Below are positions 9,281 to 51,826 of a DNA stretch of 64,000 nt, piece by piece. Under the pieces are notes generated by a model that saw only the letters and a program-made list of their open reading frames with translations, made no database searches and was not told where the DNA came from. Within the stretch, counting starts at the first letter, position 1, and each line of letters opens with the position of its first letter. This stretch comes from Candidatus Doudnabacteria bacterium (GTDB taxonomy: Bacteria > Patescibacteriota > Doudnabacteria > UBA920): positions 638,305 to 702,304 of the forward strand of contig CAVYGQ010000001.1 in assembly GCA_963768175.1 (NCBI GenBank). Direction: 5' to 3'. The position numbers were made by a program, and so were the translations under genes.

Positions 9281-9293
9281 ATAAACATTTAAA

Positions 9294-9355
9294 CATACAA
9301 ACATTTAAACATCATAGACTTTACTTATATGTTTAAATGCTTAAATGCTTGTATG
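9294..9355. repeat. AT-rich palindromic repeat at a gene junction inside an operon (catttaaacat / atgtttaaatg family)
   Basis: catttaaacatacaaacatttaaacat...atgtttaaatgcttaaatgcttgtatg lies exactly between the two FtsX genes. Confidence 0.6.
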
Positions 9356-9356
9356 A

Positions 9357-10630: not shown

Positions 10631-10718
10631 ATCATTTTAACATTTTATCATATTATCATTTTAACAAAACAGCGGTATTACATGTTAAAATGATAAAATG
10701 TTAGTATGATAAAATGAC
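10631..10718. repeat. AT-rich palindromic repeat at a gene junction (cattttaacat variant with compensatory arms)
   Basis: atcattttaacattttatcatattatcattttaac...gttaaaatgataaaatgttagtatgataaaatg lies between the FtsX permease and the ABC ATPase. Confidence 0.6.
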
Positions 10719-11434
10719 TACTTTACCAGTTCCTTATCCGGTGTGGCAATGGTGCGCTTAACAACGGATTCATCGTCAATAATATTCCCGTCTTTAATGC
10801 GGATAATGCGCCTGGCGTGGTTGGCGGTATCCATTTCGTGCGTAACCAAAATAATGGTGTGCCCGTCGTTATTTAGCCTTTGCAGAATTTCCATGACAAT
10901 GTTTCCGGACCTGGAATCCAGGTTCCCGGTCGGTTCATCGGCAAAAATAACAGCCGGCTCGCAAACCAAGGCGCGGGCAATGGCCACGCGCTGTTTTTCC
11001 CCGCCGGAAATTTGGTTGGTAAAGTAGTCAAGGCGATGGGAAAGCCCCACGGACTCCAAGGCCTTTTTTGCCAATTCTTCCTGGTCTTTCTTCTTGCTGT
11101 AAATTAAAGGCAGTTTTACGTTATCCAAAACGCTGGTGCGCGCCAAGAGGTTAAACGACTGGAACACAAAACCAACGCGCTCATTCCTTAACTCCGCCAG
11201 ATAATCGTCGGAAAAGTCTTTGGTGTTACGGCCTTCAAATTCGTACAGACCGCTGGTCGGACGGTCCAAAAAACTTAAAATATGCATCAAGGTGGATTTG
11301 CCGGAGCCCGAGGGGCCCATAATCGCCACAAATTCGCCGGAGTCTATGGTAAAACTCAGACCGTGGAGAACGGGAGTGACAACACCTTCGTTGGTGTAAT
11401 CTTTTTTTAAGTTTTGGACTTTGATTAGGTTCAT
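10718..11434 (-). CDS. ABC transporter ATP-binding protein (MacB/LolD-type)
   Basis: Walker [10 protein letters not shown], signature [15 protein letters not shown], Walker [13 protein letters not shown]. The true start is probably [13 protein letters not shown] at 11434, because the 8 codons before it belong to the intergenic repeat. Confidence 0.9.
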
Positions 11435-11510
11435 GTAAACATTTAAGCATGTAAACATTTAAGCATATGGCAGCATGTTTAGATGCTTATATGCTTTAAT
11501 GTTTAAATGA
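11435..11510. repeat. AT-rich palindromic repeat at a gene junction
   Basis: catgtaaacatttaagcatgtaaacatttaagcat...atgtttagatgcttatatgctttaatgtttaaatg lies between the ABC ATPase and the HlyD-family gene. Confidence 0.6.
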
Positions 11511-16095: not shown

Positions 16096-16200
16096 GGGTC
16101 TGTAGCTCAGTTGGCCCCATCATTCGATGGGGCAGGTATCGCAGCGGCCTTTTAAGTTTACCCTATCGAATGATAGGGCCGTTTGATAAGGGTAATCCTT
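16096..16200 (+). other. Degenerate tRNA-Lys-like sequence with two hairpin insertions
   Basis: It starts gggtctgtagctcagttgg like the next copy and contains gcagcggccttttaag and gccgtttg. It is interrupted by ccccatcattcgatgggg and ccctatcgaatgataggg, which are mutually complementary. Confidence 0.3.
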
Positions 16201-16469: not shown

Positions 16470-16481
16470 TTTAATCTTCGT

Positions 16482-16555
16482 GGGTCTGTAGCTCAGTTGG
16501 TAGAGCAGCGGCCTTTTAAGCCGTTTGTCGCGGGTTCGATCCCTACTCGCTACAT
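16482..16555 (+). pseudogene. Degenerate tRNA-Lys(UUU)-like copy: 5' two-thirds intact, T-stem and acceptor 3' strand do not pair
   Basis: GGGTCTG-TA-GCTC-AGTTGGTA-GAGC-A-GCGGC-CTTTTAA-GCCGT-TTGTC-GCGGG-TTCGATC, then CCTAC/TCGCTAC, which do not complement. Confidence 0.4.
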
Positions 16556-16584: not shown

Positions 16585-16660
16585 GGGACGGTAGCTCAGC
16601 TGGTAGAGCAGCGGCCTTTTAAGCCGTTTGTCCCGGGTTCGATCCCCGGCCGTCCCACCA
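16585..16660 (+). tRNA. tRNA-Lys (anticodon UUU), 76 nt with encoded CCA
   Basis: GGGACGG-TA-GCTC-AGCTGGTA-GAGC-A-GCGGC-CTTTTAA-GCCGT-TTGTC-CCGGG-TTCGATC-CCCGG-CCGTCCC-A-CCA. All stems pair. Confidence 0.85.
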
Positions 16661-22749: not shown

Positions 22750-22781
22750 GGGGAGGCTTCACGTCCTACGTGAAGCCTCCC
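22750..22781 (+). promoter_or_regulatory. GC-rich hairpin downstream of the VR (DGR target-recognition-type stem-loop and terminator)
   Basis: ggggaggcttcacg-tccta-cgtgaagcctccc followed by a T-rich run. Confidence 0.5.
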
Positions 22782-23808: not shown

Positions 23809-24164
23809 TTTTTAAAAAGTCGTATGATTTATACAAAGAGTTTTATATTTGTTTAAAAACTTTCCCAAAGCAGGACAGATATTCTTTAGGCCAGAAAAGT
23901 GAAACTGTTTTAACGGAAATTTTAGAGTGCTTGCTGACAGCCACCGGCCTGCCCAAAGCGGAAAAGTTACCTTACTTGGATAAGGCCAGTGGCAAGCTCA
24001 ATATTTTACGGATTTATATGCGTCTGGCCAAAGACATTAAGGCTATGGATAACAAAAGATATATTTTCTTTCAGGACTCGGTAGACGAAATAGGCAGGAT
24101 GCTGGGCGGCTGGAAAAAATCTGTTCAGGTTTTACAACAACCAGACCTACCTCTTAAGAGGTAG
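23787..24164 (+). CDS. Avd-like accessory variability determinant (four-helix-bundle family)
   Basis: 125 aa, basic. FKKSYDLYKEFYICLKTFPKQDRYSLGQKSETVLTEILECLL. Sits next to the RT and TR but diverges from the RT. Confidence 0.65.
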   Translation: MNEFDVPIFKKSYDLYKEFYICLKTFPKQDRYSLGQKSETVLTEILECLLTATGLPKAEKLPYLDKASGKLNILRIYMRLAKDIKAMDNKRYIFFQDSVDEIGRMLGGWKKSVQVLQQPDLPLKR

Positions 24165-24184
24165 GTCTGGTAAAAAAACGATGA

Positions 24185-34630: not shown

Positions 34631-35584
34631 ATGCTTTTAGAAACTTTCGATAAATTTAACGACTTTGAATTACTTGACAGCGGCTTGGGGTACCGTCTGG
34701 AACGTTGGGGAAATGCCGTGCTGCAAAGGCCGGACCCGCAAATTATTTGGCAACGCTCCCTGCCTAACAAAGAATGGGAAAAAGCTGCTGCGATATTCAG
34801 CTCACCCTCAGGCAGCGACAAAGGCCGATGGGAAGTCCAAAAACCCCTTCCCAACCCTTGGATTATAAAATTTAGGGATGTTAACTTTCTGCTTAAGCTC
34901 TCCCCCTTTAAGCACACGGGGCTATTTGCCGAACAAGCGGCGCAATGGGAATGGATGTTGACTAGAATTTCGAATTCTGAATCTGGAATGTCTAATGGAA
35001 ACAAAATTCAAAATTCTAAATTCAAAATTCTAAATTTATTTGCCTACACCGGCGGAGCAACCATGGTTTTAGTCAAAGCCGGATGCCAGGTAACGCATGT
35101 GGATGCCAGCAAACCCGCCATTACCTGGGCCAATGAAAACTATAAATTGAATTTTGGAAACCAATCTCCGCCCCTCGACTATGCTCGGAGCGAACATTTC
35201 CCTAAGGGAAATGTTCGCTGGATTTTGGACGATGCGGCTAAATTTGTAAAGCGCGAGTTAAAAAGAGGCGCAAAATATGACGGCATAATAATGGATCCGC
35301 CGGCCTTTGGCCACTCCCCTACGGGCAAAACCTGGAAATTTAATGATGATTTGCCCGGATTGCTTGCCGATTGCGTCCAACTATTATCGGCTGGCGCAAA
35401 ATTCCTGGTTGTCAACGGCTACGCCACCAACTCTTCGGCTCTGGCGCTGAACAATTTATTGGAAGACGCCGTAAAATCCAACCCAGGATCCGCCAGCTGG
35501 CGGATTGAATTTGGGGAACTGTGCTTAAAACAAAAAAATAACCAACTCATTTCAACCGGCATATTTGCGCGCTGGTCTAACTAA
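34631..35584 (+). CDS. Class I SAM-dependent RNA methyltransferase (RlmI/RlmK-like)
   Basis: VLNLFAYTGGATMV is motif I and IIMDPPAFG is motif IV (DPPxF). An N-terminal PUA-like region is present. A low-complexity insertion (RISNSESGMSNGNKIQNSKFKI) is encoded by AT-rich repeats. Confidence 0.65.
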   Translation: MLLETFDKFNDFELLDSGLGYRLERWGNAVLQRPDPQIIWQRSLPNKEWEKAAAIFSSPSGSDKGRWEVQKPLPNPWIIKFRDVNFLLKLSPFKHTGLFAEQAAQWEWMLTRISNSESGMSNGNKIQNSKFKILNLFAYTGGATMVLVKAGCQVTHVDASKPAITWANENYKLNFGNQSPPLDYARSEHFPKGNVRWILDDAAKFVKRELKRGAKYDGIIMDPPAFGHSPTGKTWKFNDDLPGLLADCVQLLSAGAKFLVVNGYATNSSALALNNLLEDAVKSNPGSASWRIEFGELCLKQKNNQLISTGIFARWSN

Positions 35585-35620
35585 CTTTGGCGTCGGCTAT
35601 AATTCGGCTATAATATAGAC

Positions 35621-35662
35621 AAAGGGACTCTTTGCGCAGCGCAAAGAGTCCCTTTGTTGCTT
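35621..35662. terminator. Perfect 42-bp palindrome, a bidirectional terminator between convergent genes
   Basis: caaagggactctttgcgcagcgcaaagagtccctttg. Confidence 0.6.
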
Positions 35663-35747: not shown

Positions 35748-36137
35748 TCAATCCCGTTTGTTTGGCTCAAGATACTCCTGTACTTTTTTATAAAGATCAT
35801 CCAAAGTCATACTGCCTTTAACTAGATACTCTTTTATGCCCTGGCTTAAAAGCATTTGCTTAAGTTCCGGTTTGTCCAAATTTGTCAGCACCAGAATGGG
35901 AACATTTTGTAAATGCTTATGGCTTTTTATGTAATCCAGAATTCCGGTGGAGCCGTCTTCTTTTGTCAGCAGCAAATCCAATATGACAATTTCCGGGGTT
36001 ACTTTTGCCAAAATCTCCTTGGCTTGTTCGGGGGTTGCGGCGGTATAAACCTCGGTTTCCCAGGTGGCAAAACGTTCTTTTAAAGTATTTAAAATCAGCT
36101 GGTCATCATCTACCATTAAAATTGTATGTTTGAGCAT
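35748..36137 (-). CDS. Single-domain response regulator (CheY-like receiver)
   Basis: LMVDDDQLI...ILDLLL...K; 129 aa. Confidence 0.8.
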   Translation of the reverse strand: MLKHTILMVDDDQLILNTLKERFATWETEVYTAATPEQAKEILAKVTPEIVILDLLLTKEDGSTGILDYIKSHKHLQNVPILVLTNLDKPELKQMLLSQGIKEYLVKGSMTLDDLYKKVQEYLEPNKRD

Positions 36138-36974: not shown

Positions 36975-38168
36975 CTAAAAACTGCCTTTGATATTCTCCC
37001 ACAAACTTTCATCAACATTTACCGCTTCACCGCGCTCGGAAGCGAGCTGTTTTAGGAGTTCTTTTTCTTTTTTGGAAAGTCTTTGCGGCACGACAACGCG
37101 CACGGTGACCAAAAGATCGCCGCGGCGGGAGGGCTCGTTTATATGTGGCACGCCCTTGCCTTTAACTTTTAAGACTGTGCCGCTTTGGATACCGGACGGA
37201 ATTTTAAGTTCTATGTTGCCATCCAGAGTTTTTAAAATAATTTTTGCACCCAAAGCCGCTTGGGTAAAACTTACCGGCAATTCTTTAAGCAAAGTAGAGC
37301 CGTCGCGTCCAAACTCTTTGGAGGGCGAAACTTTAACCACTAAATATAAATCCCCGTGGCTACTGCCGCGGTAGCCGGCCTCGCCCTCGCCGGCAATCCG
37401 CACGCGCTGGCCGTTGTCTATACCGGCGGGGATTTTTACCATAATGGTTTTTTCCTGGCGCAACACGCCGTTGCCTCTACAAGTTGCACAGGGCACTTCG
37501 GGTATTTTGCCCATACCCTGGCAGCGGTCGCAACTGACAGAAGAAGCCACGGTGCCAAAAATGGTGCGCCGCTGCTGACGGATTTGCCCCTGGCCGTGGC
37601 ATTGGGGACAAGTAATAACTTTGCTTCCCGGAGCCGCGCCGTTGCCTCCGCAGGTTTTACAGGCATCTTGTTTTTCCAAAGTCAGAGTTTTTTCCACACC
37701 GAAAACCGCTTGCTCAAAGGTGATGTTGATGCCCATTTCCAAATCTATGCCGCGCATACGCCGGCTTTGTCTTTCGGCGGAACGGCTGCCGAACATGTCG
37801 CCAAAAATATCTCCCAAGTCTCCGCCGAAGGCGGATCCGCCTTCGGCGGAAAACCCACCAAAATCAAAACCGCCAAAATCAAACCCCCCAAAAGGATTCC
37901 CGCCATAGGCGGGTCCGCCTCCGGCGGAAAAACCTCCGCCGCCATTTCTGGCGGCGTCTTCAAAAGTCTGGCCGTACTGGTCGTACTGCTGGCGTTTTTG
38001 CGAATCCGAAAGCACCTGATAAGCCTGGTTGACTTCCTTAAATTTATCCGCGTTGCCGCTGCCTTTGTCGGGGTGGTATTCGTGCGCCTTTCTGCGGAAA
38101 GCCTTTTTTATTTCATCAGCCGAAGCGGACTTTGGGATTCCTAAAATGTCGTAGTAGTCTTTAGCCAT
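36975..38168 (-). CDS. dnaJ: Molecular chaperone DnaJ
   Basis: J-domain ([32 protein letters not shown]), G/F-rich linker, and four CxxCxGxG zinc-finger repeats. Confidence 0.9.
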
Positions 38169-38170
38169 AA

Positions 38171-38250
38171 ATCATTTAAACATACAAACATTTAAACATA
38201 TAAGCAATTCCAGCATGTTTAAATGCTTAGATGCTTCCATGTTTAAATGA
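38171..38250. repeat. AT-rich palindromic repeat at a gene junction (catttaaacat family)
   Basis: atcatttaaacatacaaacatttaaacat...atgtttaaatgcttagatgcttccatgtttaaatga. Lies between the DUF3467-like gene and dnaJ. Confidence 0.6.
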
Positions 38251-39618: not shown

Positions 39619-41514
39619 TTAGACCCTGAACCTGCCGAAGGGTTGTCCGATGATGGGCCGGCCGCTCCGGCGTTCTGATTTTCTCCGCCAGAGGCGGATC
39701 CGCCTTCGGCGGACGACTTTCCGGACTCTGTACATTGCCGCGCCAACCTTTTGGATGGCTTCGGAAAGCGCGTCCATGGCTTTTTTAATGTCGTCTATAT
39801 CGTCTTTGTCTTTGACCTCTTTAAGCGCTTTAATTTTTTCTTCCACCGCGGTTTTGTCTTCCGCTTTGAGCTTTGAGCCGGTCGCAGACCCCGATCCTGC
39901 CGAGGCGGCATCTTTTAAAGTTTTTTCGGAAATCGAAATTAACGTGTCGGCCTGGTTCCTCATATCCACGGTTTCTTTGCGCTTGCGGTCTTCCTCGGCA
40001 TGGGCTTCGGCTTCTTTTTTCATGCGCTCAATCTCATCCTTCTTTAAATTAGAAGAGCCCTGGATGGTAATATGCTGTTCTTTACCCGTAGCTTTGTCCT
40101 TGGCTTTTACGGTCAAAATTCCGTTGGCATCTATATCAAAGGTCACTTCCACTTGCGGGATGCCGCGCGGCGCCGGCGGGATGCCGTCCAAAATAAACTG
40201 GCCCAAAGATTTATTGTCGCGCGCGAATTCCCGTTCGCCCTGCAAAATATGGATTTCCACCGATGTCTGGTTGTCGGCCGCGGTGGAAAAAGTCTGCGAC
40301 TTGGATGTTGGAATAGTGGTGTTGCGATCGATTAGTGGCGTGCGCACCCCGCCCAAAGTTTCAAGGCCCAAGGTCAAAGGCGTTACGTCCAAAAGCAAAA
40401 TTTCCTTGCTCTGGACATCGCCGCCCAAAATGCCGCCCTGGATAGCCGCGCCCTTGGCCACGGCTTCCATGGGGTCTATGCCGCCTTCCACCTGCTTGCC
40501 AATGTAAGTTTCCACAAACTTTCTCACGCTGGGCATTCTGGTCGGGCCGCCAATTAAAATAATTTTATCTATTTGCTGGGGCGTCAGTTTGGCATCGCTA
40601 AGTGCCTGCTCTAGCGGCTTCCGCATTTTTTCAATGAGCGGCTTAATCAGCTCTTCCAGTTTGGCGCGCGTCACTTTAAGCTGAAAATGTTTTGGTCCGT
40701 TGGCGTCCGCGGTTATAAAAGGAAGATTAATGTCGGTTTCCATTGTGGTGGACAGTTCAATTTTGGCTTTTTCCGCGGCTTCCCTGACGCGGTTTATGGC
40801 CATTTTGTCTTTGGTGATGTCCACGCCGCTTTCGTTTTTAAAAGCCGCGACCAAATAATCTATCAAAACTTTGTCCATATCTTTGCCGCCCAAAGCCGTG
40901 TCGCCGGAAGTGGATTTAACTTCAAAAGTCGCCTGATTGTCCACTTCGGAAAAATCCATAATCGTAACGTCCAGCGTGCCGCCGCCCAAATCAAACACTA
41001 AAATTTTCTGATCTTTAGCCGATGTCTTATCAAGGCCGTAAGCAAAAGCCGCAGCCGTGGGCTCATTAATTACGCGCACAACTTCCAGACCGGCAATTTC
41101 CCCGGCATTTTTGGTAGCTTGCCTTTGCGCGTCGTCAAAATAAGCCGGCACGGTGACCACGGCTTTGGTTACCGGAGCGCCCAAAAAGGTTTCCGCGTCT
41201 TTTTTGATTTTTTGCAAAATAAACGCGCTAATTTGCTCCGGAGTGTATTCCTTGCCGTTAACGTTATATTTAAAACTGGTTCCCATTTTTCTTTTGGCTT
41301 CAAACACCGTGCCGTCCGGATTGGTCACGGCCTGCCTTCTGGCCGGCTCGCCAACCAAAAGCTGGCCTTCCTTGGTAAAAGCCACATACGATGGAAAAGC
41401 TTTCCCGCCCACAGACGCGCCCTCGGCCGAAGGAATAATTACCGGTTTGCCGGCTTCCATAACACTAGCCGCGCTGTTGCTTGTCCCTAAGTCTATCCCT
41501 ATAATTTTTGACAT
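39619..41514 (-). CDS. dnaK: Molecular chaperone DnaK (Hsp70) with an apparent +1 frameshift in the C-terminal tail
   Basis: Canonical Hsp70 motifs throughout ([29 protein letters not shown]). After ...KVGAAMY the listed frame gives an Arg-rich tail ([16 protein letters not shown]...). The adjacent frame encodes [52 protein letters not shown], a typical DnaK C-terminus, ending near 39573. Confidence 0.9.
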
Positions 41515-42481: not shown

Positions 42482-43051
42482 TTATTCGCCACCTTTGGTG
42501 GCTTTCTTACTGATAATCACTTGGCTTGGCCTAATAACTTTCCCGTTCAGTTCAAACCCTGTTTGCAATTCATCGATAATAATTCCGTCATCTTTTTCCG
42601 TTTCAACCTCGCGCACGGCTTCGTGAAAATGCGGGTCGAATTTTTTTCCGATGGATTCGATTTTTTTGACGCCTAAATCTTCCAAAGTTTTATCCAGTTG
42701 CTTCAACAAAACATTGATGCCGTCTTGCCAGTTTTGGTATTGCTTGGCAAATTCTCGATAGGGAAGAGGTGTCCCCTCTTCCAGAGGGGACACCTCTTCC
42801 AAAACCGGCATATGCCTTAGCGCCAGCTCCAGGCTGTCTATTGTCGGTAAAAGTTTAATCACCGTGACTTCGCGCGCGAACTCCACCAATTCCTTATTCT
42901 CCCCTTCCTTGCGGCGCTTGTAATTTTCAAAATCCGCGGCCGTGCGCTTCCATCCCGCCATGGCGCTTTCAAAATCGGTTTGGAGCTTTTCCAGCGTTAT
43001 TTCGCCGTTCTGGTTTTGGTCGTCTTGTTGTTGTTCGTCAGACATAATCAT
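42482..43051 (-). CDS. grpE: Nucleotide exchange factor GrpE
   Basis: 189 aa. Coiled-coil N-terminal part and C-terminal GrpE domain (KLLPTIDSLELAL...FDPHFHEAV). Confidence 0.85.
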   Translation of the reverse strand: MIMSDEQQQDDQNQNGEITLEKLQTDFESAMAGWKRTAADFENYKRRKEGENKELVEFAREVTVIKLLPTIDSLELALRHMPVLEEVSPLEEGTPLPYREFAKQYQNWQDGINVLLKQLDKTLEDLGVKKIESIGKKFDPHFHEAVREVETEKDDGIIIDELQTGFELNGKVIRPSQVIISKKATKGGE

Positions 43052-43123
43052 TTAAACATTTAAGCATCTAAGCATGTAAACATACTCGGATTGTTTAAAT
43101 GTTTGTATGTTTAAATGCTTAAA
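43047..43123. repeat. AT-rich palindromic repeat at a gene junction (catttaaacat family)
   Basis: atcatttaaacatttaagcatctaagcatgtaaacat...tttaaatgtttgtatgtttaaatgcttaaat. Lies between hrcA and grpE. Confidence 0.6.
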
Positions 43124-43879
43124 TTATCTGATGATATAAACTAGCATTACCGCCGCTCCCCCGCCCAACAGTTTGGCTATATATTCCATCAACGTTAAAT
43201 TCTTTTCGTACTTCATGCTCTTGGGGCCGACAAGTCCGATAACGCCTTTTTTGCCGCTGGGCAATTGCAGACCGCTTACGATCATCGAATAATCTGATTT
43301 TTTGGAAAGCGGGATTTCTTTGCCGATAAACGTTTGCGGCCCGCCCTTGCCGCCGTAATCGCTCATTATTTGTTCCGCGTGCTCGTCTATATTGTCAAAA
43401 AACTGGGCAATTTCTTTGGCGTCCTCGGCCGGCAGGGCGGGATTATTTAATATGTGGGAAAGCCCGACAGTGGAAACTTCTTCCGGAAATATCGCAAAGC
43501 TGGCTTGATTTGAGTATTCTGATAATAACTTGGCCAAACGCCTGCTCATTTCCACGTGCGCCATTTGCAGTTTCAGCAGTTCCCTTTTCAAAAAATCCTG
43601 CTCCTTTACCGAAAGTTTGACGCGGTCCATAAGCTGGTTGACAAAATACCGAAAGCCCTTGTCGGTTGGCACGCGGCCGGCCGAAGTGTGCGGCTGGGAA
43701 ATATAGCCCATTTTTTCCAGCGCCTGCATTTCGTTGCGGATGGTCGGGCTGCTTACGTTAAAATTGTACTTTTCCGCCAAATCCCCGCTGGCCACGGGCT
43801 GGCCGTTTTCGCAATTCTCTTTGACAATCGCGGCCAGTATTTTGGCTTGTCTTGGGGTTATTTCCGATGTTTGGTCCAT
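43124..43879 (-). CDS. hrcA: Heat-inducible transcription repressor HrcA (short form)
   Basis: N-terminal wHTH (RQAKILAAIVKENCENGQPVASGDLAEKYNFNVSSPTIRNEMQALEKMGYISQPHTSAGRVPT). Sits upstream of grpE-dnaK-dnaJ. Confidence 0.8.
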   Translation of the reverse strand: MDQTSEITPRQAKILAAIVKENCENGQPVASGDLAEKYNFNVSSPTIRNEMQALEKMGYISQPHTSAGRVPTDKGFRYFVNQLMDRVKLSVKEQDFLKRELLKLQMAHVEMSRRLAKLLSEYSNQASFAIFPEEVSTVGLSHILNNPALPAEDAKEIAQFFDNIDEHAEQIMSDYGGKGGPQTFIGKEIPLSKKSDYSMIVSGLQLPSGKKGVIGLVGPKSMKYEKNLTLMEYIAKLLGGGAAVMLVYIIR

Positions 43880-44015: not shown

Positions 44016-45269
44016 ATGAAACCCAAACACACACAACTGACGGCAGGCCTAAGCATTTTGGCCCTGTTGTTCTCTTTTTCGGCCTGGCCCGCGGCAAGCT
44101 CGGCCCAAAACGGCCATAATTATTTCTGGCAGCCGGATTTCCAACACCCGGTCAGCCACCAGCGGGTTTGCAATCGCGACAATAACAATCCAAACGCCGC
44201 GGCCTGCGACGCTCATGTAGTCGTAGACCAAAACGGGAAACCCCGAACTCTCACTTCTCCGGCCGGCTACGGGCCAAGCCAATTTCAAGCGGCTTACAAT
44301 CATAACGGTGTCACCGGTAGTCCCAGCCAGATTATTGCCGTCGTAGACGCTTACGATAACCCGAAAGTTTATAGCGATCTTTCGGTATATGACAACCAAT
44401 TTGGTTTGGCCGATCTATCGCTATGTACTGCCGGTTCTTCCGCCACAGTTCCTTGCTTTCAAAAAATCTATCAAACCGGCAGCGCTCCGGCCGTTAATAG
44501 CGGCTGGGCTTTGGAAAGTTCGTTGGATGTCCAGATAGCGCATGCCGTGTGCCCGCAGTGCAGCATCTTGCTGGTGGAAGCCAAATCCAGCAGTTATTCC
44601 GATTTGATGGCCGCGGTTGACTTGGCGGTCCACAGCGGAGCCTATGTGGTTTCTAATTCTTACGGCAGCGGGGAGTTCTCCGGCGAAACCGCTTATGACA
44701 GCCATTTTAACCATCCCGGCACGGCGTTTACTTTTAGCAGCGGTGACAGCGGCTATGGGGTTGCGTATCCGGCGGCCTCGCCTTATGTTACGGCCGTAGG
44801 CGGAACTACCCTAAAAATGTCAAGCGGCGCCTATAACGGCGAAACTGCTTGGAGCGAAGGTGGCAGCGGCTGCAGCGCCTATGAATCGAAAAAACCCGCA
44901 AACCAGCCAAACATTGGATGCAATAAAAGAATGGTGGTTGATGTTTCGGCCGATGCCGACCCCAACACCGGCGCCGCAATTTATGACAGTACTCCTTATT
45001 CCGGCCAATCCGGCTGGTTCCAAGTTGGCGGCACCAGCTTAGCCTCGCCGATTGTTGCCGCCACCTATGCGCTGGCTGGCGACATCCCGGCTTCTGTCCA
45101 AGCCAATACCATCCCGTACGCTCAATACATTATATCCAAATCTTATTTTCACGACGTGACTTTCGGCAGCAATGGCCGTTGCCGCAGCACCCCGCTGTTT
45201 TGCAGCGCCGCCGCCGGCTATGACGGGCCCACCGGCCTTGGCACGCCCAATGGCACCGGAGCATTCTAA
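44016..45269 (+). CDS. Secreted S8/S53-family serine peptidase (sedolisin/kumamolisin-like), paralog 1
   Basis: Start placed at MKPKHTQLTAGLSILALLFSFSAWPAASSA (signal peptide). IIAVVDAYDNP...FGL..., GTSLASPIVAA. The track ORF begins at 43932. Confidence 0.6.
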   Translation: MKPKHTQLTAGLSILALLFSFSAWPAASSAQNGHNYFWQPDFQHPVSHQRVCNRDNNNPNAAACDAHVVVDQNGKPRTLTSPAGYGPSQFQAAYNHNGVTGSPSQIIAVVDAYDNPKVYSDLSVYDNQFGLADLSLCTAGSSATVPCFQKIYQTGSAPAVNSGWALESSLDVQIAHAVCPQCSILLVEAKSSSYSDLMAAVDLAVHSGAYVVSNSYGSGEFSGETAYDSHFNHPGTAFTFSSGDSGYGVAYPAASPYVTAVGGTTLKMSSGAYNGETAWSEGGSGCSAYESKKPANQPNIGCNKRMVVDVSADADPNTGAAIYDSTPYSGQSGWFQVGGTSLASPIVAATYALAGDIPASVQANTIPYAQYIISKSYFHDVTFGSNGRCRSTPLFCSAAAGYDGPTGLGTPNGTGAF

Positions 45270-45280
45270 AATCGTTGATT

Positions 45281-45318
45281 AAACCCCGCCCCTCGACTTC
45301 GCTCGGGGCGGGGTTTTA
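45281..45318 (+). terminator. Rho-independent terminator
   Basis: aaccccgcccctcgacttcgctcggggcggggtttt. Confidence 0.6.
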
Positions 45319-45443: not shown

Positions 45444-45989
45444 ATGACACAAAAATCAAAATCCGTTTCCGCCAATTTGCCATTGCCGCCGGAGCTAATT
45501 AAACGCCGAATCTATATTATCCGCGGACAGGAAGTTATGCTGGACAGCGATTTGGCGGAGCTATATCAGGTTCCAACAAAGTCTTTAAATTTGGCTGTTA
45601 AAAGAAATTCTGAACGTTTTCCACAAGATTTTATGTTTCAATTAACGGCTGATGAAGTCAAAAACTTGAGGTTTCAATTTGAAACCTCAAGTTTGACATC
45701 TCAAATTGCAAGTTCAAGTTTGAGATTCCAATCTGGAATATCAAGTTATGGGGGACGCCGCTACCTTCCCCACGCCTTTACCGAACATGGGGTGGCAATG
45801 CTATCTTCCGTCCTTAAAAGCAAACGGGCAATCCAAATGAACATTTTTATCATTCGCGCATTTATCCAGTTCCGTAAAATACTAATTGAACAAAAAGAAC
45901 TTTCCAAAAGATTACAAAGAGCCGAAAAAGTTATAAGGTTCCATGACCAAGTTTTGTCTGCCGTTGTTGAAGGTGTTAAAAAAATTTAA
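45444..45989 (+). CDS. ORF6N-domain (KilA-N/antirepressor-like) DNA-binding protein
   Basis: RIYIIRGQEVMLDSDLAELYQVPTKSLNLAVKRNSERFPQDFMFQLTADE. Contains a perfect 27-bp palindrome within the coding sequence (cttgaggtttcaatttgaaacctcaag). Confidence 0.6.
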   Translation: MTQKSKSVSANLPLPPELIKRRIYIIRGQEVMLDSDLAELYQVPTKSLNLAVKRNSERFPQDFMFQLTADEVKNLRFQFETSSLTSQIASSSLRFQSGISSYGGRRYLPHAFTEHGVAMLSSVLKSKRAIQMNIFIIRAFIQFRKILIEQKELSKRLQRAEKVIRFHDQVLSAVVEGVKKI

Positions 45990-46148: not shown

Positions 46149-47323
46149 TAAAAATATTTGTTCTCGCGGCGGCAATGCTTATTCTGCCGCTAATATCCAA
46201 AGCCGACACCACCCATAACGGCCGCGTCTGCACCATGACTAAAAAGCAGGGGCTGGCGAGCTGCAGCGCCCACGTGCTGACCGATGCCAAAGGCCATTTT
46301 CTGGTCAGCCAATCACCCGCCGGTTTTAGCCCGAATGATTTAAAAACTGCCTATAATTTACCCGGGCGCGCTTCGGGAAATCCGATAGTGGCGATCGTGG
46401 ATTCCTACGACGACCCAACTATAAAAAACGACCTTGACGTTTTTAGCAAACAGTTTGGCTTGCCAATGTTGCCGGCGTGCAAAAGTAATGTCGCTAAATC
46501 ATCAGCCCCCTGCTTTGCCAAACTCAACCAGCGTGGCAGTTCGGCCTTGCCCAAAGCAAACGGCGGCTGGTCAGTGGAAATTGCTTTAGATGTAGAAACT
46601 GTGCACGGCATTTGCCAAAACTGCTCTATCTTATTAGTGGAAGCAACTTCACCCAATATGAAAAATTTGATGATGTCCGTGGATACAGCGGTAAAAAATG
46701 GAGCCGCTGCGGTTTCCAATTCTTACGGCGGGCCGGAATTTTCCGGAGAAGCGGCTTTTGATTCCCATTTCAACCATCCGGGCGTTGCCTTTACCGTAAG
46801 CAGCGGCGACAGCGGCTATGGCGTGGAGTATCCGGCGGCTTCGCCTTATGTTACTGCCGTGGGCGGGACCTCGCTGTATTTGGGCAACGGCGGCAAATAC
46901 AAAAACGAAGACGCCTGGAGCGGCGCCGGCTCCGGCTGCAGCCAATTTGAAGCAAAACCTTCCTGGCAAACAGATGTTAAATGCGGCGGAAGGACCGTGG
47001 CCGATGTCTCCGCGGTCGCCGATCCGGCCACAGGCGTAGCCATATACACTACAACCAGCTCCAAAGGACAAAAAGGCTGGTTCACCGTGGGCGGAACTTC
47101 TTTATCCTCACCGCTGCTTGCGGCGGTGTACGCGCTGTCGGGGAATTTACCGGCTAATGCCAACGCCAATTCCCTGCCCTATAATTTAGGCTCACGCTCA
47201 AATTTGCACGACGTGGTCGGCGGCAGCAACGGTGACTGCTCACCTGCTTATTTATGCGCCGGCAAAACCAAATACGACGGCCCCACAGGTTTGGGCAGCC
47301 CCAACGGCACCGGAGCATTTTAA
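46106..47323 (+). CDS. Secreted S8/S53-family serine peptidase, paralog 2
   Basis: Homologous to 44016..45269 (IVAIVDSYDDP..., GTSLSSPLLAA). The second ATG at 46129 gives MSNGVKIKIFVLAAAMLILPLISKA, a signal peptide, and is the more likely start. Confidence 0.6.
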   Translation: MKNLKTKNMSNGVKIKIFVLAAAMLILPLISKADTTHNGRVCTMTKKQGLASCSAHVLTDAKGHFLVSQSPAGFSPNDLKTAYNLPGRASGNPIVAIVDSYDDPTIKNDLDVFSKQFGLPMLPACKSNVAKSSAPCFAKLNQRGSSALPKANGGWSVEIALDVETVHGICQNCSILLVEATSPNMKNLMMSVDTAVKNGAAAVSNSYGGPEFSGEAAFDSHFNHPGVAFTVSSGDSGYGVEYPAASPYVTAVGGTSLYLGNGGKYKNEDAWSGAGSGCSQFEAKPSWQTDVKCGGRTVADVSAVADPATGVAIYTTTSSKGQKGWFTVGGTSLSSPLLAAVYALSGNLPANANANSLPYNLGSRSNLHDVVGGSNGDCSPAYLCAGKTKYDGPTGLGSPNGTGAF

Positions 47324-47335
47324 AAAATCACGCTT

Positions 47336-48001
47336 ATGAAAAATCGAGATTATAAAATCTTTGCCCCTAACACATTCCATCACGTTTACAATCGTGGCAA
47401 TGGTAAAATGGATATTTTTAAAGATGAGCAGGATTTTTTTAATTTTTACAAACGCCTAAATTTAGTTCTTGGAACCCAACAAGAACAAGGGGCATCCTTT
47501 TGTTGCAAAAGGATGCCCCTTGTTGGGAATTCATTGCACATTCATCCGCTGCCAAAAAAAGCCTTTAGCATACTTTGCCATTGTTTAATGCCAAACCACT
47601 TCCACTTCCTAATCCGGCAAAACTCTGACACCCCGATCAGTAGCCTGATTTCAAAATTGTGCACAAGTTATAGCATGTATTTTAACAAAAAATACGACCA
47701 TGTTGGTGGGTTATTTCAAGACCAATTTAAGTCTATTCTTATAGATAACGATCAATACCTCTTGTGGCTGTCGGCCTATATTCATCAAAACCCCGCTGTA
47801 GCCGGTTTAGTTAAGGATATAAAAGATTACCCTTACAGCAGTTATCCGGACTACCTAGGTTTACGCGTAGGAAATATTACGGACACTTTTTTAATTTTAA
47901 GCATGGCGAGCAACGACCGCAAAAACTATGAGCAATTTGTATTAGGAAATTATGAAAAAATTAAACAGCGCAAGGATTTAAGCCATCTTTTTCTTGATTA
48001 G
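47336..48001 (+). CDS. IS200/IS605-type Y1 (HUH) transposase, REP-associated (RAYT-like), with an in-frame REP-hairpin insertion
   Basis: HUH motif CLMPNHFHFLI and Tyr region YIHQNP. A roughly 54-bp perfect hairpin at 47475-47528 is translated as GTQQEQGASFCCKRMPLVGNS. Confidence 0.6.
   Translation: MKNRDYKIFAPNTFHHVYNRGNGKMDIFKDEQDFFNFYKRLNLVLGTQQEQGASFCCKRMPLVGNSLHIHPLPKKAFSILCHCLMPNHFHFLIRQNSDTPISSLISKLCTSYSMYFNKKYDHVGGLFQDQFKSILIDNDQYLLWLSAYIHQNPAVAGLVKDIKDYPYSSYPDYLGLRVGNITDTFLILSMASNDRKNYEQFVLGNYEKIKQRKDLSHLFLD
47475..47528. repeat. REP-like hairpin (ggggcatccttttgttgcaaaaggatgcccc core) inside the transposase ORF
   Basis: cccaacaagaacaaggggcatccttttgttgcaaaaggatgccccttgttggg has a stem of about 20 bp. 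Confidence 0.7.
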
Positions 48002-48006
48002 CTTAA

Positions 48007-48050
48007 TAAAAAGGGGCATCCTTTTGTTGCAAAAGGATGCCCCTTTTTAT
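48007..48050. repeat. Second copy of the REP-like hairpin directly downstream of the transposase stop
   Basis: aaaaaggggcatccttttgttgcaaaaggatgcccctttttat has the same core as 47475-47528. Confidence 0.7.
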
Positions 48051-48732: not shown

Positions 48733-51258
48733 TTAAACCAGTTTAAACTTTTTATCCAGCAAGGCTAAGACTGCCCCAAAAATCAGGAAGGTAAAGCCAA
48801 TTGGCATTCCCGTGCGGGGTAAATGAGTGCTTGCGCCTAAAACTTTGGGCATTTGCAAATTAGAAGCGCTCGTACTGGTGCTCAAAACCTGTCCTTGAGG
48901 AACTCCGCCGCCAGATGAACTTCCGCCTCCACCGCCTCCACCACCGCCGGAGTTAGTATCGGCTGGGTTGTTATTTTGTCCGCCTGTGTTTCCCGAATCT
49001 CCGGAATTGGGATTGTCGCCCGCTAAACCAGTTGAATCCGGCGTATTTGTGGCTGTCAAAACAGTTAAAGTATTTTGATTATTATCCAGATTGGTTTCCG
49101 GCCCGTTGCCAAAGATATGAGCAAAAAAGTTGTCCGGCGTACCGCCGTTTTGATCCTGCAAAGTCGTCAGTTGGAGATCCACATTGCCGGCCGCGTTTGG
49201 CGCGAGCTTGCCTAAATAAAACTCAATGTCTCCGGGAGCAAGCGTTTGATAAGTGGAAGTCGCCTGCGAACCGTCCGACAGAGAAGCCTGCGCGGCATTT
49301 AAAGCAAACAGCGTGGGGTCATATTTCCATTCCAGCCGGGAGTCGGCCATGGAAGCCTGCCCCTGGTTGGCAAAACCGGCATTAATATTTACCGGCGAAT
49401 TGGCCGCGTCCGGAATAGGATTCTGGTCTACGGTTTGGCTGATCGACAAGTCGGGATAGCCAAACACAATGTTGCCCTGCCAGTCCCCGTAAATATTAAC
49501 CAGCCCCACATACAAATCGGAGTTTACTAAATTGGCATTGGCAAAATTCAACACGTTGGCTAAGGCCGTGGCATTGCCGGTGGTAATGCTATCATACTTA
49601 ATGTCGCCCCCAGCCGAGGTAATACCGTTTTGGCCGGTAGTGGCATTAACCGTAATATTATTATTTATGGTAGCCTGATTGCTATTATTTATATCCACCG
49701 TGGTTATGTCGGTGCTGGAAGCGGAAGCGCCGCCGCCATCCGACGAAGATCCCGGGTCTGTCGAGGTGGGCGCGGTTATATTTTGCTGATTTTGCGAATC
49801 AGCCGGCGCAGTATCTGCGGGGGTTGACGTGGGCGAATCAACTGGTGTCTGTAATTGAGACATCAGCTGGGATTGCAACGCGGGGTCGGAACTGGACACA
49901 AATGTAAAGCCTGTCGGTTCATAGTTTAAGGTCACGGATGAAGGCAAAGAATAAATATGCCCTGACCAGTTACCCATAATATTTATCAATCCCAAAAACC
50001 ATTCGCTGTTATACACCGTAAGATTGGTTACGTTTTGGACATTGGATACGGCTGAACTGGCGCCGGTGTTGACGGCTACGTTTTTCACGTCGCCCGAAGT
50101 TCCCCTGGCGTCCGGCACGGCTTGTACGATATTATCGCCTGTGTCGGTCTGCACTACGACATTGTTGCTAATGCTGGAATCATTGCTGTTGTTAATATTT
50201 AATATGACTTTTTCTACCTGGCTGACGTCGCTGTTGCCATTCGCGCCCAGGGACATAACGTCGGTAAAATACAGCTCCGAAGGCATGATTAAATCGCCGG
50301 TCCAGCCGCCAAAAACGTTAAAAGTCACAATCGTCCAGGTGGAATTGACCGCGTTCGCGTTTACAATGTTCAGCACGTTGACCACGGCATTCACATTGCC
50401 AGTGGTGATTGAATCGTTCTTTATGTCGCCGCCATTGGAGTTCATCTGGTTGCCGCCGGTGTTGCCGTTTAAAGCCACGTCGTTATCAATATTGGCGATA
50501 TTCTGGTTGGTCAGCTTAAAAGTGGTAATACTCTGGCAGCTCACGTTGCCGCTACTGCAGATGGGGCTGACCAAGTCCTGCGTACGCTCCCCGGCGCTTA
50601 ATTCCGGCTGGTTCATATAGAGGTCGGCCGCCAGCTTGTTAAAGGTGTCATTCATCTCCACGATCTGGGAATTAACCAGATTGATGTTGGCCACGGTTAG
50701 CACGTTGGCGTAAACATTTACATCCCCCGTGGTGGTGGTCGCGTTTTTAATATCGCCGTCGGTTTGGGTAAGATTTAAACCAGTATTGGCCGTGGAAGTA
50801 GCGGTGGTTGTTGCGTTAAGATTATTAATATTGAGAATCTCAAGAGTGGTAGTGCTGTCGCTGGTTGAGGAGGCATTCGACGGATCGGTTGGCGGCAGAA
50901 CTGACGTGTCAGGGGTGCTGGTGGAGGTGGTATCCGGAGTGGATGAGGCGTCGGTTAAACTAGGATCGGTGGAGGTGGCAGATGGGTCTGGCGTTTGGGT
51001 GGTAGCATCAGGGGTGCTGGTGGAGTAAGCGGCTTGGGTATCCACAGGCACTGAATTGTCAGGACTGCCGCCGGTGGCTTGCTGCTCGGCGGGATTATTG
51101 GTGTTGTTGGCGTCGTTGATTATTGTCGGATCATCCGCCAAAGCTGCCAGAGGCCGGACCAGCATAACGGACAAAACCGCAATCGCGGCAAGCTTAAAAA
51201 CGGGCAAATTAAATTTGTGCGATGGTTTTGATGAAATTTTAATTACGGTTTCGGGCAT
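48733..51258 (-). CDS. LPXTG-anchored surface protein with internal beta-rich repeats
   Basis: 841 aa. Signal/TM at the N-terminus. Thr/Ser/Asp-rich. Repeats GDIKN(A/D)(T/S)ITTG(D/N)VN...NVLN..N.N.VNS occur at least three times. C-terminal LPRTG followed by a hydrophobic stretch and KKFK. Confidence 0.75.
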   Translation of the reverse strand: MPETVIKISSKPSHKFNLPVFKLAAIAVLSVMLVRPLAALADDPTIINDANNTNNPAEQQATGGSPDNSVPVDTQAAYSTSTPDATTQTPDPSATSTDPSLTDASSTPDTTSTSTPDTSVLPPTDPSNASSTSDSTTTLEILNINNLNATTTATSTANTGLNLTQTDGDIKNATTTTGDVNVYANVLTVANINLVNSQIVEMNDTFNKLAADLYMNQPELSAGERTQDLVSPICSSGNVSCQSITTFKLTNQNIANIDNDVALNGNTGGNQMNSNGGDIKNDSITTGNVNAVVNVLNIVNANAVNSTWTIVTFNVFGGWTGDLIMPSELYFTDVMSLGANGNSDVSQVEKVILNINNSNDSSISNNVVVQTDTGDNIVQAVPDARGTSGDVKNVAVNTGASSAVSNVQNVTNLTVYNSEWFLGLINIMGNWSGHIYSLPSSVTLNYEPTGFTFVSSSDPALQSQLMSQLQTPVDSPTSTPADTAPADSQNQQNITAPTSTDPGSSSDGGGASASSTDITTVDINNSNQATINNNITVNATTGQNGITSAGGDIKYDSITTGNATALANVLNFANANLVNSDLYVGLVNIYGDWQGNIVFGYPDLSISQTVDQNPIPDAANSPVNINAGFANQGQASMADSRLEWKYDPTLFALNAAQASLSDGSQATSTYQTLAPGDIEFYLGKLAPNAAGNVDLQLTTLQDQNGGTPDNFFAHIFGNGPETNLDNNQNTLTVLTATNTPDSTGLAGDNPNSGDSGNTGGQNNNPADTNSGGGGGGGGGSSSGGGVPQGQVLSTSTSASNLQMPKVLGASTHLPRTGMPIGFTFLIFGAVLALLDKKFKLV

Positions 51259-51494: not shown

Positions 51495-51530
51495 GCGATG
51501 GGCATCCCGATATATCGGGATGCCCATCGC
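51495..51530. repeat. Perfect 36-bp palindrome
   Basis: GCGATGGGCATCCCGATATATCGGGATGCCCATCGC. Confidence 0.6.
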
Positions 51531-51577: not shown

Positions 51578-51826
51578 CTAGCGCAAAACAGTAGTCATAA
51601 TAGTATTGCCGGTAGTGGCTACTGTGCTATTGGCAACAGTCGCGCCGGCAATAATGCCAGTGTGACTAACGTCGCCCATCATTGAGCCGGCATGGTTGAG
51701 GCCGGTAGAGGAGCCTGCAACAACACCATTAAGCACCTCAGAACCGTTAGCATTGGAAACACCAGCAAAGTTCTTGCTGACGGCTAGGGCAGAAGATGTA
51801 CCACCGCGGTCTGAACCAACGGTCAC
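51578..51826 (-). CDS. Gly/Ser/Thr/Ala-rich low-complexity small protein with an uncertain 5' end that abuts the IS3 end
   Basis: The track ORF starts at a GTG. The frame stays open upstream into the IS3 terminal repeat (...KKWVPYTSSVTAPSGAAEATDPEV...). Confidence 0.3.
   Translation of the reverse strand: MTVGSDRGGTSSALAVSKNFAGVSNANGSEVLNGVVAGSSTGLNHAGSMMGDVSHTGIIAGATVANSTVATTGNTIMTTVLR

Follow-up and report, generated by a model that had tools for sequence, protein, structure and literature searches.

A RAYT-like Y1 gene of a Doudnabacteria genome with cognate hairpins inside its reading frame and behind it

A 64,000-nucleotide (nt) stretch of the genome of a Candidatus Doudnabacteria bacterium (GenBank assembly GCA_963768175.1, contig CAVYGQ010000001.1, positions 638,305 to 702,304; hereafter, the window) carries a gene for a Y1-type enzyme of 221 amino acids (aa) together with two copies of one long hairpin, of which one is read in frame within the open reading frame (ORF) and the other lies just downstream of the stop codon. 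Our interpretation, held with moderate confidence, is that the gene encodes a chromosomally stable enzyme for single-stranded DNA (ssDNA) that resembles the REP (repetitive extragenic palindrome)-associated tyrosine transposases (RAYTs), that it is accompanied by its own lineage-specific palindromic unit, and that the copy of this unit inside the ORF is tolerated. Among domesticated transposases that coexist with small repeats of their own, RAYT/REP systems are the main example. To our knowledge, nearly all descriptions of them come from Proteobacteria, Cyanobacteria, and Bacteroidetes, and no paper linking RAYTs to the phyla of the Patescibacteria, or candidate phyla radiation (CPR), was found in the literature searched. 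A preliminary description of the window, made from the sequence alone, had recognized a REP/RAYT relationship at this locus; its interpretation was right in substance, except for the suggestion that the insertion was probably inactivating and for the status of the hairpin as a dispersed REP.

The Y1 gene and its two hairpin copies

The main features of the locus are as follows.

47336..48001, + strand: Y1 enzyme gene, 221 aa, class-2 TnpA-Y1 (RAYT-like) of the HUH/tyrosine type, with an intact ORF
47471..47563, + strand: variable linker (aa 46-76) joining helix 31-45 to the strand that runs to the HUH motif; permissive site
47484..47524, no strand assigned: in-ORF hairpin with a perfect stem of 19 base pairs (bp) and the loop TTG; inverted doublet of ACAAGGGGCATCCTTTTG + ttg + the reverse complement
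47597..47605, + strand: HUH codons, His88-Phe89-His90 in LMPNHFHFLI
47777..47794, + strand: Tyr motif YIHQNP, with the Tyr148 codon at 47777-47779; class-2 'Y---NP' signature
48006..48050, no strand assigned: downstream hairpin with a 21-bp perfect stem, A5/T5 flanks, and a TTG loop; terminator-like, between convergent genes

The 31-nt palindrome core of the hairpin, GGGGCATCCTTTTGTTGCAAAAGGATGCCCC, occurred exactly twice in the 64 kb (47489-47519 and 48013-48043) and not once in 100 shuffles, and no third copy was found in the window within 3 mismatches. The two copies were 93% identical over 44 nt and had stems of the CAAGG...CCTTG type; where their outer stems differed, the differences were compensated (AACAAG/CTTGTT vs AAAAAG/CTTTTT). 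The window contained 25 other strong hairpins, all different in sequence, and membership of a known RNA family was rejected, with Rfam giving only generic, sub-threshold hairpin matches. The in-ORF copy folded at -37.0 kcal/mol (z -5.7 against shuffled sequence), and the downstream copy at -32.0 and -33.6 kcal/mol on the two strands (z -7.3 and -8.3). The in-ORF copy is read in frame as (E)QGASFCCKRMPLV, and the reading ...GTQQEQGASFCCKRMPLVGNS... given in the preliminary description was correct. The palindrome reported there likewise exists, although the outer pairing over 47475-47531 is imperfect, with a 6-nt bulge, and the perfect stem is limited to 19 bp. The second copy had been placed directly after the stop; it is indeed downstream, but begins 4 nt past the TAG. 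It was called terminator-like on the + strand (20 pairs, tail TCTTTTTATT), and its A5/T5 flanks amount to a T-run on both strands, so judging from its sequence and position this doublet probably acts as an intrinsic terminator in both directions, for the Y1 gene and for the convergent sortase gene. In the same terminator scan, the in-ORF stem had no T-run after it and was not called terminator-like. The window gene had no upstream hairpin copy, since the preceding gene stops at 47323 and leaves only 12 nt before the ATG.

The encoded protein matched the Pfam family Y1_Tnp (E 5.1e-10; residues 74-152 against profile positions 38-121) and the RAYT equivalog NF047646 REP_Tyr_transpos of NCBIfam (58.5 bits, E 6.8e-16, residues 74-168 only). 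Its sole sequence relative in the PDB was the Escherichia coli TnpA-REP bound to a REP hairpin (4ER8, E 0.0027). The same structure was the top Foldseek match (E 3.8e-8) of an AlphaFold model built with 30 homologs (predicted local distance difference test score [pLDDT] 85, predicted template modelling score 0.82), with the ISDra2 and IS608 TnpA proteins ranking behind it. The domain match, the HUH and Tyr motifs, and the 4ER8 fold agree with the original identification of a RAYT-like Y1 HUH enzyme. In an alignment of 30 family sequences, H88, H90, Y148, H150, N152, and P153 were invariant, and the window protein retained 21 of 21 family-invariant residues. Further motifs are FQ in the place of the W-motif and an SS tail followed by a C-terminal tail of ~50 aa. 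The signatures Y---NP and Y---Q distinguish class 2 from the IS200 class (Quentin, Siguier, Chandler, Fichant 2018, PMC6006769), and the set NHFH, FQ, YIHQNP, and SS tail therefore assigns the protein to class 2 of TnpA-Y1, whose defining combination of HUH and Y---NP on a Y1 HUH fold it displays. Nothing in the sequence suggests that the gene is dead, because every family-invariant residue is present.

Hairpins at the ends and in the linker of related genes

A protein search yielded 5026 relatives, the best of which was 73% identical, and those that were named all belonged to Patescibacteria/CPR. For the genomic context, we examined 80 loci from species-representative genomes and 13 more for the closest proteins (designated by L numbers). 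A hairpin scan revealed an architecture in which one hairpin precedes the start by 20-80 nt and a matching one follows the stop by 0-40 nt, forming hairpin-gene-hairpin units of ~750-800 bp. A cognate upstream/downstream pair was present in 39 of 84 homolog genes, its sequence being lineage-specific, and a stem core of the CAAGG/CAAAGG...CCTTG type occurred in 22 of 47 tabulated loci (about half). In most pairs, the two loops read alike on the + strand, and the copies often had ~10 nt of 3' flank in common; clearly inverted pairs were recognized by inspection in L009, L011, and L048. Thus, the hairpin is cognate to the enzyme, as had been proposed, in that each homolog has its own hairpin at the gene ends and often in the linker too. 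The gene flanked by cognate palindromes that characterizes a REPtron is found in the family, and the window gene has the downstream and in-ORF copies only.

Each protein cluster that was looked up had one genomic context only, and no second copy of the Y1 gene was found in the 64 kb; with synteny persisting at 62-73% identity, this is the pattern of a single-copy, vertically inherited gene. Carriage by a phage, considered on account of the nearby ORF6N gene, was rejected, since the 2.9 million viral contigs searched contained only one relative, 26% identical.

The gene order around the Y1 gene allowed orthologs to be recognized. The neighbours concerned are listed here.

45444..45989, + strand: ORF6N-domain gene (Pfam ORF6N, E 1.7e-34); second synteny anchor, shared with L084/L085
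46106..47323, + strand: Peptidase_S8 gene (Pfam), immediately 5' of the Y1 gene; synteny anchor with L084/L085 and L086
48055..48657, - strand: sortase gene (Pfam Sortase, E 9.6e-20), convergent, its 3' end facing the downstream hairpin

The order ORF6N - Peptidase_S8 - Y1 was common to the window and L084/L085 (Y1 protein 73% identical), L086 (62% identical) had Peptidase_S8 - Y1 - DsbD, and L094 (63%) had Y1 - DsbD, indicating that these genes are orthologs at a stable chromosomal site. Their hairpins were homologous but diverged (CAAGGGGCATCCTTTTG in the window, CAATGGGCATCTTTG in L084, CATTGGGCACCAA in L086, and CAAGGGTCATCCTTG in L094). In the window and L084, the in-ORF hairpin occupied the same codons in the same frame (EQGASF...RMPLV vs QQWASL...KMPIV), and perfect in-ORF stems of 19-20 bp were kept in both despite 27% protein divergence. 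The arm changes between the two were two-sided and compensated (CAAGGGGCATCC... vs CAATGGGCATC...) and were repeated in the downstream copy of each genome, which on this sequence comparison is concerted change within the genome. Because the in-ORF copy is common to a syntenic ortholog with 73% identity, it is old.

The other orthologs displayed further states of the same linker. L084 had an upstream copy, unlike the window; L086 had perfect upstream and downstream copies and an equally long linker with only a trace of the hairpin (CCCATT). The short linker of L094 held one half-unit, ACAAGGGTCATCCTTG, read as EQGSSL, a sequence found again as the short hairpin upstream of this gene and as one arm of the 20-bp hairpin downstream. 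From this half-unit it follows that the long hairpins, including that of the window, consist of a short unit doubled in inverted orientation, as in REPINs (REP doublets forming hairpins). Within the clade, the linker was therefore found as a single unit (L094), as a doublet (window, L084, L095, and L096), and as a relic (L086). Among more distant genes, L087 and its tandem paralog, L091, and L093 each had their own cognate hairpin at aa 48-53. The paralogs of L087 (987-1643 and 1702-2364; also in L088) lie directly downstream of a PemK-toxin gene and have distinct cognate hairpins each, the in-linker copy included (ATCCAAGGGCATCCCTTGGAT type vs ACAAGGGCGCCCCTTGT type).

Across the family, the linker varied in length from about 8 to 45 aa in the zone measured. 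The model of the window protein has it as a loop that connects helix 31-45 with strand 77-85, and residues 50-64, which comprise the hairpin-encoded peptide, are the sole internal stretch with pLDDT <50. The Pfam and NCBIfam matches both begin at residue 74, past the linker. These properties bear out the earlier view of a 21-aa segment as an insertion, here one in a variable-length linker that both profiles skip, and members lacking the segment, which the preliminary description had proposed to look for, were found (P0004 and P0098). Among 88 genes, 19 contained cognate in-ORF hairpins: 15 in the stretch between the conserved codons Arg40 and Phe77, that is, in the same linker as in the window, with offsets ranging from 34 to 83 nt and all three phases represented, and 4 at a second loop, between YIHxNP and (Y/W)SSY. 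In a longest-common-substring test, a cognate linker match of at least 8 nt was present at 21 of the 66 loci with a flank hairpin (32%), compared with 5.4% when hairpins were swapped between loci as the control, and 16 loci had a match of at least 13 nt, for an overall share of 24-32% of loci with a flank hairpin. Matches were denser in the linker (8.4 per kb) than in other parts of the ORF (1.1 per kb). The conserved linker peptide GGASL.AE.H was considered as a hairpin-encoded sequence and rejected, with the hairpin lying just upstream of it (SPEGRPQG / SPEVGPLG).

Equally rejected was the idea that one ancestral insertion underlies the whole family, since offsets, phases, and orientations vary, and it holds true only within subclades. 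Neither was a recent single insertion in the window gene borne out; the insertion is old, and the whole linker of the clade is hairpin-derived. The in-ORF copy is thus an old, tolerated, in-frame, REP/REPIN-like insertion and not an inactivation. Of the two possibilities raised earlier, the tolerated peptide insertion fits the intact ORF, the invariant residues kept, the disordered loop, and the syntenic ortholog, 73% identical, with the same in-frame hairpin; probable inactivation is not supported. In annotation, a single intact gene is the proper description of the locus, and a disrupted transposase is not.

Dispersal, mechanism, and competing explanations

Searches with the exact hairpin core found no match in the GTDB species-representative genomes and none in viral contigs; in metagenomes, three contigs matched (L081, L082, and L083). 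L081 and L082 represent a single intergenic site in two strains, whose overlapping parts are 95% identical. There, a hairpin matching the in-ORF version at 40 of 40 nt follows a DUF5666 gene, and no Y1 gene lies within ~2 kb on either side. This site indicates that at least one off-gene copy exists. A comparison of this site with an empty site in the window was ruled out, since the window has only MacB paralogs of 34-50% identity and no DUF5666 gene. In L083, TTTGGGGCATCCTTTTTTTCAAAAAGGATGCCCCAAA (2101-2129) lies between convergent ORFs of a contig with 51% G+C taken from a metagenome scaffold of 180 kb; it shares only a 13-nt arm with the window hairpin and, from its sequence, may be a terminator that looks alike by chance. 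Palindromes halve the information in such searches, as this case illustrates.

Two hairpins elsewhere in the window are tentative candidates for diverged relatives.

35619..35657, no strand assigned: ACAAAGGGACTCTTTGCG cag CGCAAAGAGTCCCTTTGT; same inner stem and loop as in the downstream hairpin of L084; between the convergent ORFs 34631..35584 (+) and 35748..36137 (-)
51495..51530, no strand assigned: GCGATGGGCATCCCGA tata TCGGGATGCCCATCGC; shares GGGCATCC/GGATGCCC, a core of 8-9 nt only; past the stop of the gene 51578..51826 (-)

Nicking and rejoining beside a palindrome on ssDNA is established for E. coli TnpA-REP and IS608-type enzymes. In the family, the units occur singly or as inverted doublets (REPIN-like long hairpins) at both gene ends. 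In the mechanism that we propose, the enzyme, with His88/His90 as the metal site and Tyr148 as the nucleophile, would bind the folded unit on ssDNA, nick beside it, and rejoin the ends. Units would thereby be copied or replaced, mainly in cis, next to the gene. Copies arising inside the gene itself would survive only in frame and in a permissive surface loop, where they could double, be homogenized with the flank copies, and decay. In the window, one doublet in the linker from the helix to the HUH strand appears as a disordered peptide of 14-15 aa, with the second doublet 4 nt past the stop. The in-ORF copy would owe its perfect, flank-like state to copy replacement, gene conversion, or arm-templated repair and not to a recent hit. 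The data show the anatomy, the cognate association, the position bias, the orthology with its concerted change, and the intactness of the enzyme; from them we infer catalysis on the hairpin, action in cis, the homogenizing process, and termination.

Several observations weigh against the interpretation of the locus as a stable RAYT-like gene with its own unit. Dispersed copies, the hallmark of REP/REPIN populations, were not found; the 64 kb contained 2 copies, both at the gene. The 20-kb loci L091-L093 had copies at the gene only, with none within ~10 kb on either side, and a lenient probe gave 23 matches in 403 kb of flanks, against a rough chance estimate of 6-15. Neither copy had a GT[AG]G foot in its flanks (cccaacaag|AACAAGGGG... 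and gattagctta|ATAAAAAGGGG...). Of the REP/RAYT relationship as first described, the cognate hairpin has stood; a REP in the strict sense, with many dispersed extragenic copies, did not emerge from the sequences covered. The NF047646 score lies under the curated cutoff of 80 bits. The mostly same-orientation pairs of the family resemble the ends of IS200/IS605 elements, unlike the inverted REPs of the classical REPtron, and the G+C content of the Y1 gene (37%, vs 47% and 49% in the 7-8 kb on each side) could hint at a foreign origin. Selection for some function of the in-ORF hairpin could also explain why the stems are perfect in two orthologs. Finally, the binding and cutting of the hairpin by the window protein are argued from analogy with its characterized relatives.

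Some of these observations suit an IS200-like insertion sequence of ~0.8 kb, mobile as a whole, with the flank hairpins as its subterminal ends and the in-ORF copy as an extra or displaced left end. The ~750-800-bp units, mostly with hairpins in the same orientation and often with the ~10 nt of shared 3' flank, the fold related to IS608/ISDra2 TnpA, the low G+C of the gene (37% against 47-49%), and the lack of any copy in the window beyond the in-ORF and downstream ones are all as expected of such an element. We nevertheless hold it to be improbable, since the chromosomal position is conserved across orthologs of 62-73% identity, each protein cluster has one context and the 64 kb no second gene copy, and an element beginning at the in-ORF hairpin would contain a 5'-truncated gene; its Tyr motif is also Y---NP of class 2, not the Y---Q of IS200 transposases (PMC6006769). 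Even less is to be said for the hairpins as coincident terminators, with the downstream copy serving as a local terminator and the ORF copy duplicated by an unrelated process with no link to the enzyme. The downstream copy does have the shape and position of a classical terminator, and other long perfect hairpins stand at gene ends in the window, but the 25 other strong hairpins of the window all differ, and dozens of homologs, with different sequences, show the same gene-specific pairing of internal and flank hairpins, which swapped hairpins do not, making this explanation extremely unlikely.

Two further explanations concern the in-ORF copy. It may be a selected cis element, through which the enzyme, RNase III, or the ribosome limits expression, or which permits a deletion switch via the direct copies. 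The 19-20-bp stems that remain perfect in two orthologs across 27% protein divergence, the use of the same linker in 24-32% of flank-hairpin loci and in most of the closest relatives examined, and the very stable fold (-37 kcal/mol, z -5.7) argue for selection. We still consider it unlikely: the copy is decayed or absent in syntenic orthologs (the relic of L086, the single unit of L094) and in most family members, its offset, reading phase, and orientation differ among lineages, a second and different in-ORF site exists, and the in-ORF stem has no following T-run and no terminator-like call. Arm-templated repair, known as quasipalindrome correction, can moreover keep palindromes perfect without selection. 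A specific form of function, in which the in-ORF copy would be a built-in control or substrate site, homogenized with the flank copies, appears quite improbable; the enzyme or an RNA-level process at this stem would provide feedback on the gene, or the 524-bp catalytic segment between the direct copies would be reversibly deleted, as in a self-targeting HUH switch; if true, such a switch would be found in organisms with minimal regulatory repertoires. The other explanation, that the hairpin inactivated or crippled the enzyme and left a dead relic whose ORF has yet to decay, would fit a foreign peptide of 14-15 aa with two Cys close to the HUH strand and the loss of the upstream hairpin in the window. 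However, the full-length ORF with its 21 invariant residues, the confident fold outside the loop, the retention of the insertion in the intact 73% ortholog, and similar insertions in many intact homologs render it very unlikely.

Surroundings in the window and relation to known systems

Upstream of the Y1 gene, two Peptidase_S8 paralogs, with 3' parts 74-81% identical (44602-45271 and 46665-47325), flank the ORF6N gene; the Y1 gene follows the second only, and the first is followed by a different terminator-like hairpin (45281-45316). Directly upstream of the sortase gene, 48733-51258 (-) encodes an 841-aa Ser/Thr/Asn-rich protein ending in ...LPRTG, a hydrophobic stretch, and a basic tail (KKFKLV), which together form a sortase sorting signal. 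Farther away, the MacB/FtsX-like permease genes 8028-8986 and 9360-10610 (-) are flanked by the repeats 8026-8054/9358-9386 and 7399-7444/7971-8016. The first matches the MacB of L081 in two tblastn segments (8986-8291 and 8309-8028), suggesting a frameshift or a split gene. Several of the intergenic-looking, 8-nt periodic arrays of the window (AAACATnT / AAGCATnT; 9261-9364, 10632-10717, 11431-11510, 38164-38250, and 43032-43142) flank the MacB-like genes at 8.0-10.6 kb. Each array consists of two inverted arms of 3-5 units, ~10-25 nt apart, and they look like operator- or iteron-type sites or a small family of miniature inverted-repeat transposable elements.

A G+C-rich palindrome, TC(T/C)CCGCC(G/A)(A/T)AGGCGG(A/G)TCCGCCT(T/C)CGGCGGA, is present in three copies (37819-37850, 37897-37928, and 39682-39713). 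These palindromes were considered as a second hairpin-gene-hairpin unit (37819, 37897, and 39682) and rejected because they lie inside long ORFs, the minus-strand ORFs 36975..38168 and 39619..41514, where they are probably a repeated coding motif and not REPs. A tRNA-Lys(UUU) was called at 16585-16660; a 67-nt stretch 103 nt upstream of it (16477-16543) is 91% identical to the tRNA and received no tRNA call, a partial copy of the anticodon arm lies at 16132-16156, and the region may be a decayed tandem tRNA duplication. Inverted repeats of 121 nt (22565-22685/24185-24305), 85% complementary and 1499 nt apart, with hairpins nearby (22751-22781 and 24140-24171), could represent either the termini of a small mobile element or a gene end duplicated in inverted orientation.

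RAYTs are single-copy, vertically inherited, and REPIN-flanked, with abundant flanking repeats in some groups only (Bertels et al. 2017, PMC5581495). The E. coli RAYT/TnpA-REP (YafM; 4ER8) resembles the window protein in its HUH and Y---NP motifs, its '(W/F)SS'-type tail motif, and a gene flanked by its own hairpins, as well as in being single copy and vertically inherited (PMC5581495). The two proteins are 17% identical, and that of E. coli has 165 aa with a short helix-to-strand connection; its REPs number hundreds of dispersed copies with a GTAG foot and inverted pairs at the gene, none of which was shown for the present locus. The REPIN-RAYT systems of Pseudomonas (Bertels and Rainey 2011, PMC3116915; PMC5581495) share the short palindromic units arranged as inverted doublets in long hairpins and the lineage-specific units co-evolving with a single-copy Y1 gene. 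Pseudomonas REPINs amount to tens to hundreds per genome, whereas the copies here are almost only at the gene, with one clear off-gene site (L081/L082).

The TnpA of IS200/IS605 elements (IS200, IS608, and ISDra2) has the same Y1 HUH fold and belongs to a small unit with same-orientation subterminal hairpins at both ends, of which IS200, like the units described here, carries tnpA as its sole gene. Those transposases have Y---Q and ~150 aa and are multi-copy and mobile, in contrast to the window gene, with Y---NP, 221 aa, and a conserved position. Of the IS200/IS605 traits, same-strand subterminal hairpins were seen in most paired loci; Y---Q, multiple copies, and variable position were not. 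The canonical REP with a 5' GT[AG]G foot is a property of subclasses 2.2, 2.4, 2.5, 2.7, and 2.8 (PMC6006769). Flank hairpins without this foot are known as the 'atypical secondary structures' of TnpA-Y1 subclass 2.6 and class 3 (PMC6006769), and subclass 2.6 also has a YIH[QN]NP motif and an SS tail. It differs in its Bacteroidetes hosts, its ~179 aa, WQ, and an alphaC:beta4 insertion, and no in-gene hairpins were reported for it (PMC6006769).

The closest precedent is subclass 2.4 (Bertels group 4; Cyanobacteria, Bacteroidetes, and others), for which in-frame REP insertion within tnpA-REP genes has already been published, as a feature called unique to 2.4, with some cases in 2.8 (PMC6006769). 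Common to both are a class-2 Y1 enzyme (NH[IFV]H, Y---NP), cognate flank hairpins, cognate hairpins in frame inside the gene in a variable peripheral region, and long 'double-foot' or doublet hairpins. The window protein does not belong to this subclass by insertion site, FQ for WQ, or YIHQNP. The insertion sites here lie before the HUH motif, in the connection of helix A with the HUH-bearing strands (15/19), or past the Y motif (4/19), there is no GT[AG]G, FQ replaces WQ, ~50 aa follow the SS, the hosts are Patescibacteria, and dispersed copies were not found.

The differences from published cases therefore lie in the enzyme branch, the type of hairpin (no GT[AG]G), the insertion sites, and an apparent confinement to the gene. 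A very large, Patescibacteria-wide branch (>5000 proteins) that was absent from the surveys of PMC6006769 and PMC5581495 has the same organization of gene and cognate hairpin. If confirmed on whole genomes, the confinement of hairpins to the gene would make this a minimal RAYT system, useful for the question of what RAYTs do in the cell. The in-frame capture of its own hairpin by a Y1 gene is not peculiar to subclass 2.4 and recurs at other permissive loops, and much of the length variation in the linker preceding the HUH motif can be interpreted as hairpin units arising, doubling, and decaying, a case of a mobile DNA motif writing protein sequence.

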